This document shows positions 25,301 to 57,586 of a stretch of DNA of 64,000 bases, piece after piece; the stretch's first letter is position 1; the number at the start of each line of letters is the position of its first letter. Location of the stretch: NCBI GenBank assembly GCA_050575255.1, contig JBNZDD010013635.1, positions 3,136,358 to 3,200,357 of the forward strand. Reading direction: 5' to 3'. Position numbers and translations under genes: made by a program. The DNA comes from Harriotta raleighana. Its lineage: Eukaryota. Below the pieces are notes generated by a model. That model was not told the origin of the DNA. It did not search any database and saw only the letters and a list, made by a program, of their open reading frames with translations.

Positions 25301-26294
25301 GATTCAATTTCAAGAATCCAAAAAGGAAGCAATTGCTCCAAGTTTTGTGGCCAACTTCATCCGGAGATCCAATGAATTGTTTTGACATGCCTCGGATTAC
25401 CCACTTTGGCAACTGGTATTATTTCTTAAGAAATTTTATTAAAGTGTGAAATAGACACACTTTTGTTTTCAATGAAAGCCTATGAAAGAGCTTGAAGTTG
25501 CACACAGGACCATAAAAGCACTGATAGTTAGGATATACAGTATATATTTGTTGCAGTATTATCAAAGTTCTCCAGCCTTATTAACCTATGAATACCTTGA
25601 AGTGTGGAAGTGGATTTATGCTCAATAATCATAAAGTTGAAGAATTCAGACTTATTTTTTCCCCCTATTTAAATAAGATAATTATCACTTCATTAATCTA
25701 CAACACACTTGATGGAAACAGCATGCCAAGTTTTAAGGAAGAGTTATGGTACAATTTTAATTATCTGACGCACCTTACTGAATTAATTGATGTTGAATTA
25801 ATGAACACATGTATGGAATGAATGCAGTGGGACTTGAGTATCAAATCATAGAAGCTTTGGTTTTAAAAAAAAGTTTCAAAATCTTTGCAAAGTAGTCTCT
25901 CACTGATACTCCCACGTACTTTTTTTTGAAAATGCTCTAAGCAAAAAGTGTATAATCCAATCTAGTACTCTTTGTTAGGGTAAAAAAAAAATCCAAAAAG
26001 TTATATTTCATCCCACTTTTCCCCTTTACTCTCTTCTCATGTGTGATGTTAGAGACTGTGTGTACGTCTTCTGCCAATTTCATAGATATAAGACATGGGG
26101 TTAATAAACAGCTCTTCCTGAGGAACACCTCAGACACATTAGGCGGTCTGGCCACCTTCTGTGCTCGAACATTCAATTACTGTAGTTAAGTTCTGTTACT
26201 TGGTTGAATTGAAATGAAGCTCACCTTTTCAGGACGTTTCTGATTATCACAACTATCTGGCCTATTGAAACAGCTGAGTTCTAGACAGATCATT

Positions 26295-26640
26295 TCACCC
26301 ACAAAATATACAGTCAATTCACTTTACAGTATATTCTGTCAAGCACTTTCTGACACCTAGAAGACATGAAAATAATAATAATCCTTGCATTTGATATAGC
26401 GCTTTTCACATCTTATCGACATCCCAAAGCGCTTCACAGAATATACTGTAAAGTGAATTGACTGTATATTTGTGGGCGGAATGCGGCAGCCAATTGCGCT
26501 CAGCATCGTCCCCCCACACACAGTCATGGATTCAAATGACCAATTTTATTATTGTGGTTTTTTTGGAGGGATTATTATTAGGCATGTGGAGTAAGGAAAC
26601 TTGGAGCGCTATATCAAACGCAAGGATTATTATTATTATC
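26295..26640. mobile_element. Antisense SINE (26372-26601) nested in the tail of a sense SINE (26295-26371 and 26602-26640)
   Basis: The plus-strand tail breaks at ..AGACATGAAA and resumes as GAGCGCTATATCAAACGCAAGGATTATTAT. Confidence 0.8.
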
Positions 26641-27059
26641 AGTAATCCCCCCCACCCTCCCATTGAAGTGTTGCATCAATCTCATGATAATAAATGAGAA
26701 GCTGGCACACAAACATGTCAACAGGAAGGTACTATATCAACATGGAGAAATAGATGCTAAGGACAGGATTGTGTTTGGCTGCGATTGCACAAATGAAGAA
26801 GAAACCACTTAACAATGTACAGTATTGCAATGGAAAATGGATATAGAACTACATGCCAGTCAAATATATCAACAGTTAATATCCCTGAAATACCTTTGAA
26901 AAAATGTCTAATGTAGAATGAGGTTGGATTTTGGTTTGTTCAATAATCTCATTAGAATTCAACACAGGACCATGTGCAGGAAATCATTGACACAGTCACT
27001 AGACTCCAGTCTTGTCAAAGAATCTGAAAAGAAATGGGCTCTTTCTTTTTTCGTCTGTT

Positions 27060-27400
27060 GGATCATGTTTGATTCATCTTTATTGAGTGCATTTTAGTAC
27101 AATATTTTCCGAAAGTTACTGTTACAAACTTAAACATACTCCACACAGATAACAAACTAGAAATGTACAAGGAAACAAAAAAAGCTGTGTTTTTTTTTTA
27201 CAGTTTTTCACTTTGTATTTACAAATGTGCTGCTTGCAACATGCCAATACGTTTTATACATCTGAGAGCCAGCGTGTACGTGCGCAAAATCATGGGAGAG
27301 AAGGTAATGCGGACATTCGTATCCATTTGAAGTTCCTGTTGAATTAAAGGGGTGTGTGACCACTTCAGACGTTCAGTCTTGTCGTTTTTGTCAGCTCTTC
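27060..27400 (-). other. Candidate distal terminal exon of EPHB1 (phase-0 reading EELTKTTRLNV* at 27400-27365)
   Basis: Acceptor tttctcctcctttcctgcag|G at 27401, a 3'UTR-like body containing TGTAAATA and TGTACATT, and AATAAA at 27084-27079. Confidence 0.45.
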
Positions 27401-28675
27401 CTGCAGGAAAGGAGGAGAAAGCGATTGTTACTGCAAGAGAACTGTGAGCTGGCTAACTAAGTGACTGCAGATTCCTTCTCAACGGTCTGGCAGTCATCAA
27501 ATTACAATCAATCACTCACTCATCATGAATCATCAACATAGAACATTCAGCAACTGAACCAATACCAATTTCGGTTGACATAGAAACTAACTCAAAACTG
27601 AAGAACACATTAATTACACAATATGCAGATTTTTCCCCTCCCCTGTCCTGCAAGCACTGTTTCTCTAGTGTACTGTTCCAATCTGAATATTTCTGTCTTC
27701 TCCTCAATAAACACCGCTGCATCCTCTGAACCTCACTCTCTTAGTCAAGCCGAGAGGTCTTTGCCCCTGAGGCCTTTTCAGCACTCTCAGTGTCAGGAGA
27801 CCATTTAGGTGAGGTGTGAGGGTGTGAGAAGAGAACTGTATTGAAAATGCCTTGAGACCTGGCCCCTACAAAACAAAATATAGCAGTCATGAGGGAAAGG
27901 CATGTGTAGACAAAGATTATTTGAAGTATGTAAGGAGGAAGCATTGACAGACAGAGAACAGGAAGGGACTTCCAACAATCACTAATGAATGAGCTGCGTC
28001 TAATGAAAAACTGATGTATTCCAGGATGCAAAATAGTATAAAATATTAAGTTGGGAACATAGTTGTTCTGGACAGTGATTGTTGAACACTAAGTGTGTGA
28101 CAGCTAATGAAATCATAGAATTCTCCCTCGTCTCTGTCAACAGGCTAACCTCTCCAGGCTGACCGATGGGAAGAAGTTAATTATTGAAACCTGTGAGAGA
28201 GTGGTCATGATACCTATTTGAAGGGTTCAGCTGTGAATCAGGCTTTGCACTTGAACGCTCTGGAGTTTACTGCCTGCAATCTGGGCTGCCCATGGATGAT
28301 GTGATTGGTGCTCAGCATAAAATGGGCTGAAAATTGCAACAGAAATGCTCTCAGAGTAGAAGGATATTAAAGGGTAAAGTTGTTTCTTTGCAATTTTTTT
28401 TAAACAATGAGCTAAAGGCAAGATCGATCGTTCAACCAAAGCAGAAGGGGCTGGTAAGGCAGTGATGAAAAACTCGTGCCTCATTTCAGAATTCATACGA
28501 CGAAAAATTCACATCTTTTTTCTTGCAATGAAATTAATCATCAAAAGCTACTGATTAAACGATACTTGGAGCTGAGTTGTTGAACACACTCAAATAAAAA
28601 TGTAAACATGTTTGGGAAAATGGTTCTGGCGAGAGAGATATTATGACAACCTTTGTCATAATGATAATACAGTAA

Positions 28676-28790
28676 CATGATAATAATCCTTTCATTTGAT
28701 ATAGTACCTTATCACGTCTTCTAGACGTATAAAAGCGCTTCACAGAATATAATGTAAAATTAACTACTGACTGTACATTTTGTAAATAAA
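28676..28790 (-). mobile_element. SINE 3' fragment
   Basis: ATAATAATCCTT.CATTTGATATAG..AAAGCGCTTCACAGAATAT. Confidence 0.75.
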
Positions 28791-29042
28791 ATACTGCAAA
28801 ATGATGCCTGCCTTACTCTATTACTGCTTAAAGGAAGAGAGCAAAATTCATTGTGGTGCCTGTCCTCAGCTCTACACGATCACATAGGGCAGGACTGAGA
28901 ACAGGTGGGCAACTAGATGTGCCCCCCATACATCCAGATGGTGGCTTTGCAAACTTTAGTTTGTATATTTCAATGTAAATTTCTTCTCTCCACACATATT
29001 CATATAACCACACATTCAGGGCTTCTAATTTTAAAAAAAGCC

Positions 29043-29157
29043 TAAATACTGCAGATGCTGGAAATCTGAAAAACAGAACACTCAGTAGGTCAGGCAACAT
29101 CTGTGGAGAGAAGAAAGTGAGTTAACTTCTCATTTCAGCTTGATGACATTCCGTCTG
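29043..29157 (-). mobile_element. Fragment of a common chondrichthyan repeat (Penelope-like terminal-repeat type)
   Basis: AAATACTGCAGATGCTGGAAATCTGAAA..CTCAGTAGGTCAGGCAACATCTGTGGAGAGA. A related, oppositely oriented fragment lies at ~38520-38600. The family assignment is from memory. Confidence 0.5.
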
Positions 29158-30757
29158 TGTGGATTCTAATGCTCTGTCATTCCAGTACTGATTGAACTGG
29201 TCTCAGAAACTAGATGTACAAGTTTTAGTTTGTGTAGAGATTGACTACAATGCATCCAAATCAACTTGAAGCAAAAGAAAATTTGGGGTTTTTCTCTCTA
29301 TTTAGAGTTCTCACAGGTTATAATATAGAAAAATGTATTTCAATGATCTTTCTAATGTGAGTGTCCCTTCTCAGGTCAGTCTCTTGTCCATTTAAAGATA
29401 GAAACCAGGCATGCTCCATCCTGAGACAGATATGTTGTCCTCATGTGCTCTCCATGGGATTTTTGTAATTTGTCCCAATATCCAAAATAAATGAAAGGCA
29501 AAAAGAGGTTATAATCCAACACACCACTATCGTAAAGAAAAAAAACACGATTTGAATTGTGCTTAATGGAACCACAAACCATGTAATTTGAAACAAAACT
29601 TGTACCGTTAATTAAAAATAATGAAGGGCTAGTGCTGAAACTGGGGAGGTTTGGACAGGATTTCAACATGTTTACTTCAGGCAAAATGGCAAGTCTAACA
29701 ACTCTGCTTTGCCAACTTGTCAATCAGAAAGGGGTTTGTTTGCAATTACTGCAGGTAAATGCCAACAGGCTGCCTCTGTGTTTGAAATATTTACAGACTG
29801 TTTCTCCTTCAACAAGGGTGTGCCATTTTGTCAAACAGCTCTGATTTGTTCAAGTGGAATTAGGAGGACAAAGAGATTGGTAGAGATCACAGAAATTTCA
29901 ACATAAGCAATGGGTTCATTTGCGTAACTGCAAGAGGAAATCATTGTGAGTGGTAAAACCTTCCAGATACTTCCAAAAGGCCTTTCATTAAATACTACAT
30001 GGAGAGAATCCTTTATAAAACTGTTATTGGTGGGTTTAAAGGGTAAGGCGTGAATGTAGATTAATAACTTGCTAAAGGGAAACGAGCAGAAGGTAATTGG
30101 AAAGGAAACTGGGCCAAAATTAGAGAGATATTGAATACGGGGCCTCAAGGCTCCATGCTGGCATCTAGTGTACATAAACGGGATGATTCGCAAATTAGAT
30201 GCTAGGTGCTTAAATGCACCCTAAGATGGAATGGCAGGGAACTGGAACTGGAGCAAGCAGCCAAGATCTTATACAAAGAGAGCTCAAAAGGAATGCACCC
30301 GGTTGGCAAATTAAACTTAATGCAGATGCATCATGAATATGCTGACTGCAAATATTCCAGTAGGAGTAGTGATGAAAAGCAGAAACCCTGTCTTATTTTT
30401 CTATCTTGCAAGCTGAGGGGTATTGAAACCAATTGTAATGCCTCAACTGTTGCCTGTGCCAGACAACTCAATGCTCAGGATCCTCTGTATCTAAATGTGT
30501 CTTGATCTTTCATGTCCAATATCCAATTGGTCGGGAGCTGTGTGGCCAGTAACTGATTAAAATCACACTGCTTACATATTCACTCCTGCAGTTGAGCTGA
30601 CTTAACTAGTGTCCAGAAACATTGATGACTCCAATTAACCCATCAGCACATGACAAGCTGATTAGATGGATATCTTGGGAGTTACCATTTTCACAATTCG
30701 GATTTGGCAATCCACAGATGCTACAGTTAGAGGGATTGGGACGATTCTATTATAACA

Positions 30758-30917
30758 GGGAACTCTCAGTAGAGAGCAGAGAAAAGCAATGGGATTCTCA
30801 GTACAGAGTACTTGGGGACTCTTAATATAGAGTAGAGCAATATTTTGGAACTCACAGCACAGAGCAGTTCAATATATGGGGATTCTCAGTCCAGAGCAGA
30901 GCATTTCATAGGGAACA
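30758..30917. repeat. Degenerate minisatellite, about 5 units of 24-33 bp (GGGAYTCTCAGTACAGAGCAGAGCA)
   Basis: Units start near 30758, 30791, 30815, 30847 and 30879. Confidence 0.6.
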
Positions 30918-31139
30918 AATACTGAACAGGACATCATATATATAATTAAACAATACTGACCTATAGTTCTCAGATGAAAGGCTAACAATTCATAGCTGAA
31001 ACATTCATTTGAAACTATCATAATGCCCTTCCCATCCACGTCAGTCACTGGAATACTTATGTGACCTTTGGGTTAATTTTAGATTACAGCAGTTCCATTT
31101 TTCTTTGTCTGAAAACATACCCTATATGTTGCTGTTTCT

Positions 31140-31463
31140 AATAATATAATAATCCTTGCACTTGATATAGCATTTTTTCACATCTTCTAGTCTCTCAAAG
31201 CACTTCACAGAATATACTGTAAAGTGAATTGACTATATTTTGTGGGCAAAAACATGGCGGCCATTTGAGCAGAGCATAAACAGTCCCATAAATAGTCGTG
31301 GATTGAATGACCAATTTTTTAATAGTGTTTTTAGATCTTGAAGGATTATTATCAGGCATGTGGAGTAAGGAAACTTGCCCAAGGTTTCGCCCTGTCAGGA
31401 ATCAAACCCAGGTCTCTTGCCTGCAAGGCGAGTGCTCCAACCATTGAACTGTAGGATTCCTCA
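31140..31463 (-). mobile_element. Full-length SINE copy
   Basis: Reverse complement of 1327-1643, including the tRNA-like head. Confidence 0.85.
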
Positions 31464-34099
31464 TTTAACCTCCCATTTGTATTTTGCAATGGGTTTATGT
31501 ACAGAGTTGAATTTATACATGGATCATTCAATTAATTTGTAAACTGTATTCTTAATACATACATGAATTTATAAATTCTGTTTTAAATGTTGTATTATAT
31601 ATGTATCAATGTTCTTTTGTTTTGTAAATAACGCAGGCTGAGCATCTTATGTACCTTAACCAGTACTGGAAACAAATGCAGTCTTCGTAAGATAAGACAG
31701 CCCTAGGCATGGCTTTAACCTACACCTCATGCATCTGACGTAGTTTAGTTTCTACCGTTTCCAGGCATAGCAGATGCTTTAATGACATTTCAGATGCAGA
31801 TGAATATTTTATCAAAGCCAAATCCACAAACAATAATTCCACGTACATGTTACCACGTGCAATTTTCCAAATGAAGCTTAAAACCCTGCAGGAATATAGT
31901 ATGAGGCACTTCAACCCAGGGGAGGGCAGAAATAAACATTACTCACTAACTTCAGCCAAGCCCCATTTTCCCAGCTTCTTGCTGGAGAGCCATTTTCAGG
32001 AATGCTCCAATGCCCTTCTCTATGGGGTGATTGGCCCTGACCAGTGTACTCAATCCCTCAGATGGCAGTCTCCCGATTTACTCACTCTGGATGGCTTCTG
32101 GAGAGGGAAGATAGTCCCGCTTATCAATTATTAACATGTCAATTTATGTTAATAATTATAAATTCTCATTTTACATATAAGCCATTGTTTAGCAATCTTT
32201 CTGTAAGTAGCCTTCAAGAAAGCTAGCAAACTGACTTCCATTCTAAAATGCTACGTTTAATAAAGTAAATCTTCAGCCAGGTAGAATTGAACTCCCTATG
32301 TTTGTCACAGGGAATTAACTCTACGCGTTGCATTGGATAAGTGATACTGCATTATTTCAGATATTTCTTGGCTTTGCTATCAGTGGGTGTGATGAAGAGT
32401 GAGTAAGGTGATATTGATCATGCAAGCTGATAGTATGACAGGTATTATTGGACTTGCACTTCATAGACTAGAAAGAAAGGTGGACAAGATTGTTTTCCCA
32501 GCAATATAGTGCTGATAAATAATGTAAGAATATATGTTTCAAAGGCAGAATCTGATGGGACTGAATGTCTTGTGTTAAGATCCTAATCTCTGCAGTCCTG
32601 GCTAGACTCATCCCGAACAAACAAAATGAAAGTCTACAGCACAAAAGTGAGCATTCAATGGTAACTGGCAATAAGATCAATGGCACATCGAGAATGGGGT
32701 GATTTCACTGGTGAAGTTGAGAGGCTTGTCTGAGGTTAGAGGTTAAGATGCACTGCAAGGAGAGGGGACACATTCTGTGTACTCCACCATGCATCGTGAA
32801 TCTACTTTATCCGACCTAGAATCCATCACACTGGTACTGATCATAAAAAAGCAGAAACATTTGTCTGCCCTGACCTTTCTCTCTGATAAAAGCGGCCAGA
32901 AAATACAGAGGGCAAATTCAGGATCAATATCTGGGTATTACAGGAAAAATGTGATGAGATCTTGTGGGAACCTGGTCTCAGTAACATTTGTTAAGTATGA
33001 CAGAGTGGGAATACCGACTGAGCAGCTAATTTGTGTTGCTTGACGAACTTGATTCTGGTTGGGAAGCCACTGCTTAAGACCACAGCAGTGTTACAGCTCA
33101 GTACCTGTGAAACTGGTTGCTGCATTTCCATTTCTCTCGACTGCCGCAGGGCGTCTGTCAGAAAGCCATCACTCAACGATCACTTCCTTGCTCATTTTTC
33201 AAATATTGTCAGCAGCTCCCGGGAGTATAAATGGTTTTTTTTTCCCCCCGAATATTTGTTTTTATTTGAGGTATAGGCTGTCAGAAGGGTCAACTTTAAA
33301 GAGAGAAACCTTTGAACACTGTTCAAAATCAGGAATGTGTGAAGTCCCAAATCCTTGCTTTGCACATGTTTAAAATACCGATGCTCCTTGAAAGAAACTG
33401 GCCTCTTTTACATGAGGTTTGGGTTTGATACTCTTCCAAGCTGGGACACTGACCGTTGGTTGTGACAAGCCTCAAGTGACCTACCTGAATACTGTCTCTC
33501 ATCGTACCTCTTTAGATTAACTCAAAACACACAAATCCTGTTTACCATTTCTTAACAACTTTATTTTATAGTTATGAGTGCTCGGGTAGTAAAACTCAAA
33601 TAAAGTGAAAGTGAGCCAAACTGCAAATATCCTAAATTTAATGCTAGAGTAATGGATTGTTTCATGCAGTGAATTAGGGATAAAACAATCTAAGATCATT
33701 TCACGTGGATTCGTGGTACCAACAGAGACGGAGACTTCATTACATAAATTTAGGTTGGATTCAAACTGAGCTACCGATGTAAGGCTTCTTGGTCATCTGA
33801 TTTTTAGGACTTATTCGGTCAGTATATTCCCCTTAAAACTTTTTTGTCTTAAACTTGTAGATTCTGTTCAAGAACAAGAACAAACTTCAAAAATCAAGAA
33901 AATGTTAAGTTCCGCACGGCATATTTTAATTTTAACAAGCCAATTACTAAAATTCTCGCTGAAAAGACCTCAAAATGAGTTATTAATTAAAGGTATTTCA
34001 TGGATTCTGTTGAATGCAAGTCTATCTCACAAGCCTTGGGAAATGTATTGACTGTTGAGGAATGGCCTCTTTTTACACAAGAGACAGTTAAATCTGAAT

Positions 34100-35329
34100 C
34101 CAGAGTGTTCACCAGAGACTATTTTTATTTATTTTATTTATTTATTATATTTATATACTAGTCAGTGTTCCATTGCACTACTGAAACCGCAATTTCATTT
34201 TACAGTGGGTCGTTGCATCGTCAATGCATCGAGACTGATGGTTGAATATATAAAAGGTCAGATCTGTGAACTTGAGAGTCGCAACAGAAAAAGGCAACAT
34301 AAGATTTCAATGCACAACAGACAATTTCTGCTGGTAAGAAGTAACTTATCAGATTGTGGACTCCCAATATTTGGAATCGAGCTGAAAAATGGGATGAGCA
34401 CAAATTCTTAATGGATAGCTACTTAAGACTCCACTGTTAAAAGAGAAAAGTACAGCGGGCTACACAAAACAATGAAGACTTACCAGCAAGTTGAAGCAGC
34501 GAAGTTCGGAGCACTGTGTTAAATCTACATCACTGGTGCTTCCACAAGCACCAACACAAAGGAAAAGTCTACAATGAGTCCATTATTGAGCAGTGCAACA
34601 TGAGGTACTGCACACGTTCATTCGACTGCACCTCATCATGAGTGGGTTTGGAGTAATTGTCCACCCTGGGATCACTTTTCTGAAATCACAGCTTCTCTGT
34701 ACAACGTCAATCAAAACAATTAATATTGAGCCCAAATAGATGGCATCCCAGCCACAAGCACAGTCTTGAGTGTCCTGTATGATAAATACCTATTCCCCTT
34801 TGTACAACCACAGCAGGCTGGTGATCAGCCAGCATTCAAAGTCATTGCTATTAAGCAACAGCAGTAGTTGCAGAAAATGCAAGCAAATGAATGATTAGTT
34901 CTCATCATCTTCAATATGAAGATATAAAAGGATTCGGAATCCGTCGCAGGACAAGGGCCAGTTCCTTGGCAATGATGTCAGGAGAACACCATTCGAGAAA
35001 GAGAAAGTGTGTTTAAGAAACATCGAAGAATATCACAGCATGGAAGGTTCTACTTCATTCTTTGGGAAAAATGGGATGTTCATTGATTCCAGTTTTGTAG
35101 ACCCTGAATTAATGAAGGGAGATGGGAAAGAAAGTTGAGTCTGATTGGGGTCTTCAGTCTGCTTTGTCTTTAGAGAGGAATACGAGGTTTCTGAATAGGC
35201 CAAGGATCAATCTGATAGACAGTAACAATACGTTTCCTTCATAAGAATGGTCAAGCCCATGAGAAATAGTCTGTGTCTTTGTTTCGCTTTCCTCCAGTGC
35301 TTTTAGACATGTCTCGTGCTTCTCTGCTG
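34100..35329 (-). other. EPHB1: Probable proximal EPHB1 3' UTR
   Basis: Repeat-free sequence directly after the stop, running to a cluster of AATAAA hexamers. The true end is inferred. Confidence 0.55.
34124..34146 (-). terminator. Cluster of five AATAAA polyadenylation signals
   Basis: Plus-strand TTTATT starts at 34124, 34128, 34133, 34137 and 34141, about 1.2 kb downstream of the stop. Confidence 0.5.
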
Positions 35330-35438
35330 TCATGCCATTGCCGATGGAGCTTGGCTAATTTGTACCCTCATTGACTGAATGCTGTTCAGTATTTTCTTCT
35401 GGTGACCAGCCAAAGTGACCCCTATCCTCAACAGATCC
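35330..35438 (-). CDS. EPHB1: EphB1 last coding exon (109 bp to the stop): (E)[35 protein letters not shown]
   Basis: Acceptor tttcctgcag|G and TGA at 35332-35330. The ...AMA C-terminus distinguishes EphB1 from EphB2/EphB3, which end in VEV/VQV. Confidence 0.95.
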
Positions 35439-35879
35439 CTGCAGGAAACGAAAACACAATGATGCATTTGAAACAACATGGACACAACAGGTTGCCCGGT
35501 TATTTTTTTTAAAAAAAATTGGTTTGTTGTAGTCTCTCACTGCCCCATTTAAAAAGTGACTAGAAAAAAAGCTTTGTTCATGTTTTGTTTCTCTTCAATA
35601 CAGTGCAAAGCAAGTATTGTAATTTGGGATATTTCAGTTCATCTTTTTTTTACTTTCACACAAAATGAATTGAAAACACTCAATCAGATACTGTCTCCGC
35701 CAACTTTTCGAGCTTGACCTCACTCACTCAGTGATGCTCTAATTTGATAGCATCCATCTCCTCAGCTGTTTGTTTGCAATGCAGATGGGTATTTCAGACC
35801 AACATGTGAAAGAATCTGGAGCCAACGCTATCAGGAAGGGGCACCACCACCCAACAAACATCAATCCCTAGCTAGTGCA

Positions 35880-36340
35880 TTATTTTCACCCAAAAAATAC
35901 ACAGTCAATCAACATTATAATATATTCTGTGAAGTGCATTGAGGTGTCTCAATGGTGTGGTAAGGCACTATATCAGATGCAAGATTATTGCTATATCCGA
36001 TTACTGTTATTTTGAAGGATCAAATACCCACAACATAATAATAATAATCTTTGCATTTTGATATAGCGCTTTTCACATCTAGACATCCCAAAGCACTTCA
36101 CAGAATATACTGTAAAGTGAAATGATTGTATATTTTGTGGGTGAAGCACGGCATGCAATTGCGCACAGCAGAATCCCACAAACAGTTTTAGAGTGAGTGA
36201 CCAAATAATTGTTTTTTTTTTTCTTGAGGGATTATTATCAGACATGAAGTAAGGAAACTTGCCCAAAGTTTGGTCCTGCCAGAAATCAAACCCAGATCTC
36301 TTACTTGTGAGGCGAGCGCTCTAAACCCTCAACTACAGAA
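35880..36340. mobile_element. Tail-to-tail SINE pair in the last EPHB1 intron: plus fragment 35880-35990 and near full-length minus copy 36035-36340
   Basis: Both match the window's dominant SINE. Confidence 0.8.
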
Positions 36341-36779
36341 CTAGATCACAATGGCAGCTCAGGAGGCATATCCCAGGTTACCAAGCAGCACAAGGATTTT
36401 TTCCTTCATGTATATTTTCACAAGCTATAGTATTCTATAGCTCAGGGGAATATTTTAAAAAGAACATCCTTGTACATGATTGTTCTTCCCCTTTAATAAA
36501 CAAAGATCACATTCATTTATTCTGACCACTGGGAGTCCCTCTAACCAACCGCATTTCATAGTAACTCTAGGTTACTTGCCAATCACCAACCGCTCATTAT
36601 TTCTTGACGAATCTAAAAGTGATTATGTCCCAATTTTCAAGGATTCAGTGATCCATCAATGACAAGGATAGCAATGCATTCTGTTGTCTCCAAAGGGAGA
36701 CCTGCATAGCGGAGTCTTACAGCATAGCACAGACTACAACTCAAAGAAATATACTCTATATTTAGGGATGTGATCTCAT

Positions 36780-36933: not shown

Positions 36934-37089
36934 TCTGACGTCATCTGAGTGGTCAGTTGGAGAGAGGAGAAGCCAGCGTTCAGGAAGTTCTCTTGGTATT
37001 GACTCATCTTGATCGCACTAAGCCATTCCTCCACCGAGGTAAAAGTAGTGAAGTCCGGGACACTACGATCTAATAGAGGCTGGGAAGGC
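36934..37089 (-). CDS. EPHB1: EphB1 SAM-domain exon (156 bp): (V)PSQPLLDRSVPDFTTFTSVEEWLSAIKMSQYQENFLNAGFSSLQLTTQMTS(E)
   Basis: Not in the ORF track; translated by hand. Acceptor gatacag|G, donor GA|gtgagt, open frame, and an Eph SAM motif (WLxAIKMxQY). Confidence 0.95.

Positions 37090-57178: not shown

Positions 57179-57586
<408 letters not shown>

Follow-up and report, generated by a model that had tools for sequence, protein, structure and literature searches.

On its minus strand, the 64,000-nt stretch of Harriotta raleighana DNA analyzed here (the window) carries the 3′ part of EPHB1. The kinase domain, the SAM domain, and an EphB1-type tail are all present, identifying the gene as the EPHB1 orthologue, and an 83-aa kinase exon displays 100% identity to EphB1 of Callorhinchus milii (XP_007908799.2). 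The SAM-domain exon (36934..37089, minus strand) precedes the last coding exon and is spliced to it at 35438. This last coding exon (34484..35438, minus strand) is 955 nt long, with the stop codon TGA at 35332-35330 followed by 846 nt of 3′UTR, in which neither AATAAA nor ATTAAA was found. Of the six proteins in the Callorhinchus EphB1 cluster, five have a tail identical to that of the window and one is a 281-aa fragment, and EphB1 orthologues from C. milii, sharks, rays, and bony vertebrates carry tails of the small-hydrophobic-A type throughout. The residue following SMR (35363-35365) is Val in H. raleighana, Callorhinchus, and most bony vertebrates, and Gly or Ala in sharks and rays (P0161, P0163, P0221-P0248). 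Several EphB1 models from frog, ray, and shark (P0142, P0143, P0146, P0224, and P0241) stop just past the SAM exon (…QMTPEYVFICQADFS, …QMTSEVKAWKPVEGVG); these models may be incomplete, or they may represent predicted tail variants in which the intron before the last exon is read through.

Downstream of the last coding exon, on the same strand, lies a splice acceptor followed by a short open frame. The original prediction interpreted this stretch as an orphan terminal exon of EphB1, joined to a GT inside the last coding exon (35366 to 27400) so that EELTKTTRLNV would replace the normal 11-residue tail and act as a PDZ switch. The sequence elements on which this proposal was built were found as described, including the acceptor TTTCTCCTCCTTTCCTGCAG/G at 27401/27400 (slashes mark splice junctions), the 36-nt frame reading EELTKTTRLNV up to a TGA at 27367-27365, the AATAAA at 27084-27079, the GT at 35365-35364 directly after ATG AGG, and a CAG/GTACAT donor at 57205/57204. 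The last 10 intronic nt, TTTCCTGCAG, are indeed the same as those at 35439, and only two minus-strand copies of them occur in the window. The acceptor region (27401..27450, minus strand) consists of a polypyrimidine tract and CAG, is free of AG for ~30 nt, and contains candidate branch points, recognized by motif, at 27430 and 27448; the letters of the joined exon start at 27400.

Exon duplication was considered as the origin of the shared acceptor and rejected, as the alignment is limited to the 14-nt acceptor and its score is matched in 42 of 200 shuffles. Genome-wide comparison indicated that the region around 27400 is single-copy, and a paralogous copy of either part of the EPHB1 3′UTR was ruled out, since only self matches were obtained. 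The region also proved repeat-free, as had been claimed, and with neither a repeat family nor an Rfam match in the exon region, no known structured RNA was seen there. Elsewhere in the window, high-copy SINE-like repeats occupy 26294-26641, 28669-28763, 31139-31450, and 35885-36342, one of them with a tRNA-like part (Rfam tRNA match at 36271-36342). A hairpin-like arrangement at 26304-26471 gave a weak match to MIR5048, far below the cut-off, and three degenerate direct copies of ~50 nt each are found at 30759-30896, inside the 3′UTR intron described below.

The 14 candidate sequencing runs comprised 10 small-share runs guessed to be RNA, one of DNA, and three of raw RNA. Seven of them were compared with the window: X1, X2, and X4 (contigs of organism A, from two studies), X11 (DNA of organism B), and X12 to X14 (raw RNA). 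All of the RNA is from related species, and the organism A runs were only guessed to be RNA, although their spliced contigs argue that they are. As SINE-like repeats dominated the joint listing, junctions were first read in the pieces of individual contigs and afterwards in the loose ends. In contig X1 rec 1 (organism A, 3,389 nt, depth 59), the SAM exon (37089-36933) is followed by 35437-34483 and then by 27386-27054, and contig X2 rec 11 (organism A, depth 12.4) likewise joins 35437-34483 to 27386-27054 in one record. Within 34165-35470, loose ends at 34483 that continue into the 27400 exon were present in X1 and X4 (one contig each, from separate studies). The same transition is made in organism C by 16 raw poly(A) reads from X13, with an agreement of 1.0. 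X14, which comes from the sample of X13 and has a depth of about 3, had no loose end listed at 34483. In X13, depth falls from 16 in the exon before the 34484 donor to 0.09-1 in the intron beyond it, indicating that splicing from 34484 to 27400 dominates over read-through in organism C. The X12 profile displays a similar shape, with a depth of 7-8 over 34422-35474, 0 over 34071-34421, and 3.8 over 27051-27401, the poly(A) reads on the 27400 exon contrasting with a depth of 0.3-0.7 in the flanking bins. These X12 reads are plus-strand first mates, which correspond to minus-strand RNA in most stranded libraries.

These data define a GT-AG intron of 7,083 nt (27401..34483, minus strand) and a terminal exon, carried by X1 rec 1 and X2 rec 11, that measures 347 nt up to the point where the transcript contig stops (27054..27400, minus strand). 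The donor used in the relatives, CTG/GTAAGT (34478..34486, minus strand; last exonic base 34484), has 8/9 U1 matches, making it the best among the 54 GTs scored in 35437-34401 and equal to the best true donor of the gene; the donor of the K4 exon, AGT/GTAAGC, has 5/9 by hand count. The donor at 34484 was missed in the original prediction. Because it lies after the stop codon, the 27400 exon is 3′UTR. The orphan terminal exon is therefore real, being spliced on at the end of EPHB1 and holding a poly(A) signal, but it is non-coding and its donor is in the 3′UTR. In the relatives, splicing is near complete and the protein tail is unchanged. Both splice sites are intact in H. raleighana (CTG/GTAAGT and CCTGCAG/G), from which we infer that its EPHB1 is spliced in the same way.

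The terminal exon is conserved above the intron background in organism A, with 15 substitutions in 333 nt (4.5%) versus 88 in 836 nt (10.5%) for the intron (Fisher p=0.0008), a gap that is understated given that the background consists of the four intronic pieces passing an 82% filter. Its role in carrying the mRNA end, and not a peptide, is the likely reason for its retention.

The AATAAA at 27079..27084 (minus strand) is likely the main poly(A) signal of EPHB1, with an end near 27054, where the X1 contig ends 25 nt downstream of the signal. Depth in X12 drops at positions below 27051, beside an A-rich tract at 27051-27041. This position of the 3′ end is taken from a single contig, which stops next to the tract, and contigs cannot prove an end; no reads displaying a poly(A) tail directly were seen. 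Six UGUA motifs (27260, 27223, 27202, 27169, 27126, and 27101; 27098..27260, minus strand) lie in the 200 nt before the AATAAA, compared to a mean of 1.08, and only 2 of 319 window bins reach 6. The cluster is a candidate CFIm site, and the octamer TGTAAATA at 27223-27216, which holds one of the UGUA motifs, is a putative Pumilio-type element. Cleavage would take place near 27054, helped by the UGUA cluster, and U1 bound to the strong donor at 34484 would suppress poly(A) sites within the intron, in the manner of U1 telescripting, where a strong upstream donor suppresses nearby poly(A) sites.

An AATAAA cluster near 34140 has the appearance of a normal poly(A) signal but is a recent intronic insertion. 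It consists of 39 A-rich nt with a 4-nt direct repeat, TAGT, and three AATAAA hexamers (34146, 34138, and 34129; 34118..34160, minus strand). Organism B DNA has 4 letters where the window has 43 (X11 rec 9), and the insertion is also absent in organism A (loose end at 34176; X1 rec 5). In its makeup, it resembles the tail of a truncated retroposon. Given that this cluster is absent in the relatives and that the 846 nt after the stop contain no hexamer, the AATAAA at 27084 is likely both the ancestral and the main signal of EPHB1. We consider it highly probable (roughly 0.88) that the 27400 stretch is a non-coding last exon of EPHB1 reached across a constitutive and largely tolerated 3′UTR intron, that it likely carries the main poly(A) signal, and that the AMA tail of the protein is kept.

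Introns of this kind are a known class, with distal 3′UTR introns tabulated for 582 zebrafish, 489 human, and 649 mouse genes in PMC7310861. ARC, SRSF4, and eif4a2, as presented there, resemble EPHB1 in having an intron wholly within the 3′UTR, at least 50 nt past the stop, and a non-coding last exon with a poly(A) signal. EPHB1 differs from these genes in its 846-nt distance, its 955-nt exon, and its 7 kb intron, and NMD is only putative. The exclusive 3′UTR introns (e3UI) described in PMC13223760 are similar to the EPHB1 intron in that they are efficiently spliced in well-expressed genes, entail no obligatory decay, and remove a long stretch of UTR; these are human introns and often regulated, whereas the EPHB1 intron looks constitutive in the samples seen and common to related cartilaginous fishes. 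A literature search found no report of a 3′UTR intron in EPHB1, although the supplement of PMC13223760 might list human EPHB1, and the accessible parts of PMC9661723 and PMC1431701 contain nothing specific to it. The RefSeq EPHB1 mRNA of C. milii may already model the intron.

The position of the junction, seen in organisms A and C at 846 nt downstream of the normal stop and thus beyond the 50-nt minimum, raises the question of decay. After splicing, an exon junction complex would be expected ~820 nt past the stop, and the 50-55 nt rule predicts that such an EPHB1 mRNA is marked for NMD. The intron could accordingly be kept as an Arc-like regulator, with the junction complex directing decay of EPHB1 mRNA after the first rounds of translation and so holding down the amount of receptor in places such as growth cones, a role that would add to the non-coding terminal exon without replacing that explanation. 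The distance of 846 nt fits the 50-nt class of distal 3′UI, and the splicing, near complete in organism C, is present in two lineages. The mRNAs of ARC and other genes with distal 3′UI rise on EIF4A3 or UPF1 knockdown, according to PMC7310861. Moreover, EPHB2 and EPHB3 have no donor of at least 7/9 within about 1.5 kb of the stop, so that the intron appears to be specific to EPHB1 among these genes. However, decay is predicted to be weak on account of the long exon containing the stop, the distance from this stop to the junction, and the readiness with which the spliced mRNA was assembled. According to PMC12776119, NMD loses strength in exons >400 nt and as the junction becomes more distant, and bona fide or exclusive human 3′UTR introns are reported in PMC13223760 to be not predominantly NMD-sensitizing and to show no net UPF1 response. 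The spliced EPHB1 contig of X1 has a depth (59) of the same order as that of EPHB3 (83.5), although contig depth is a poor measure. Finally, table S3 of PMC7310861, in its accessible form, places this kind of intron on no full-length EPHB1 transcript of either human or zebrafish. Its EPHB1 entries are limited to three short transcripts from human (of 2, 6, and 2 exons), and zebrafish ephb genes have no row. On balance, Arc-like regulation strikes us as unlikely. A broader version, in which chimaeras and perhaps all cartilaginous fishes have a constitutive EPHB1 3′UTR intron that renders the mRNA short-lived in the manner of Arc, teleosts and mammals are without it, and the insertion in H. raleighana adds a short-UTR switch, is somewhat less likely still.

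The insertion could also act in a different way, its AATAAA cluster (34146-34129) giving H. raleighana a short, unspliced, and junction-free 3′UTR that competes with splicing to 27400. The three hexamers are about 340 nt past donor 34484, and the lineage-specific insertion is missing from organisms A and B. Nevertheless, U1 telescripting from the strong donor a short way upstream would be expected to silence these hexamers, and the terminal exon at 27400 is still intact and conserved in H. raleighana, so that we regard this competition as improbable.

The proposed splice from 35366 to 27400 fares worst and is, in our judgment, very improbable. The idea was a reasonable one, since an 11-residue length together with a hydrophobic-x-V/I/L end is found at 0.25% of 9,100 sampled start positions; such an end by itself occurs at 7.9% of these positions, and of 34 acceptor-like sites on the minus strand, four produce it, one of them being the target. 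In EPHB2 and EPHB3 of the H. raleighana genome, MR is indeed followed by 11 residues that finish in VEV and VQV, as had been claimed for these receptors, and the 27400 acceptor is active in RNA. There is also a precedent in the family, the long isoform of human EPHB2, whose tail is swapped by splicing from a donor located within the last coding exon. In EPHB1, by contrast, the donor comes after the stop and the tail is unchanged. The match in length and L-x-V end is a fairly unlikely coincidence, yet it is unconserved. The window has five A at 27385-27389 where organisms A and C have four letters, and with one base fewer, the same frame in these relatives reads EEPTERQD (organism A) or EEPTKRQD (organism C) before a stop, with no PDZ-type end, so that neither the frame nor the stop of EELTKTTRLNV is conserved. 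The five-A run that creates the frame could reflect a change in this species, an allelic difference, or a mistake in the assembly. In organism A, the first 31 nt of the exon contain 5 base differences and a gap, worse than the exon overall.

The donor side of the proposed splice is similarly unconserved. All 22 shark and ray EphB1 proteins having the last exon (of 30 listed) carry Gly or Ala after SMR, so no phase-0 GT is possible in these species, and Polypterus and Erpetoichthys have Ile at this position. An EE[LP]T-type tail was present in none of the 249 proteins compared (192 with a SAM end; cluster samples rather than all isoforms), nor does any annotated EphB1 orthologue compared have one, the H. 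raleighana tail being identical to that of C. milii. The donor itself, AGG/GTACAA (35360..35368, minus strand), is weak, as was acknowledged at the outset, with 4/9 U1 matches that are equalled or beaten by 25 of the 54 GTs, whereas the true donors of the gene score 5-8. Its likeness to the GTACAT donor at 57204 is present in the sequence but does not extend to strength, the latter scoring 7/9. Loose ends at 35361 were rejected as an internal splice, as they translate to MNQTLPVQV and a stop, which is the tail of EPHB3. Among the papers listed on PDZ binding and splice-variant C-termini of EPHB1, titles and opening lines of abstracts revealed nothing on such an isoform.

In the relatives' RNA, junctions into the 27400 exon come only from 34484. 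No loose end at 35366 was found in 4 of 4 runs, and contigs X1, X2, and X4 run through this position. A minor isoform would be hard to see, as with 20-25 reads and a 3-read threshold, a form at 10% would escape notice more often than not and a form at 20% with a probability of 10-21%, and contig assembly leaves rare forms out. Since the RNA seen is that of relatives, a rare use of 35366 specific to H. raleighana is conceivable. Conservation, as read from the sequences compared, is a stronger argument against a PDZ switch than the absence of reads.

Seven of nine Eph last-exon loci could be parsed, and beyond EPHB1, only L006 (G000:C13684:4858854-4861955) has donors of 7/9 within 1.5 kb, as judged from sequence only. 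At this locus, an EphA-like last exon ending …RVQLMNGSMAM is followed by donor-like sites of 7/9 at 1,118 and 1,367 nt past the stop, with no poly(A) hexamer in 1.5 kb. L006 possibly has another 3′UTR intron.

These results correct the 3′ end of EPHB1, whose true end likely lies 7 kb beyond the apparent poly(A) cluster near 34140, and they remove a tempting but false PDZ isoform of EphB1. Distal 3′UTR introns being already established as a class, EPHB1 provides a further example. If NMD acts on the spliced mRNA, an axon-guidance receptor would join the neuronal mRNAs regulated by 3′UTR introns, and EPHB1 would be a case of intron gain or loss in jawed vertebrates; otherwise, this would be an ordinary UTR intron.
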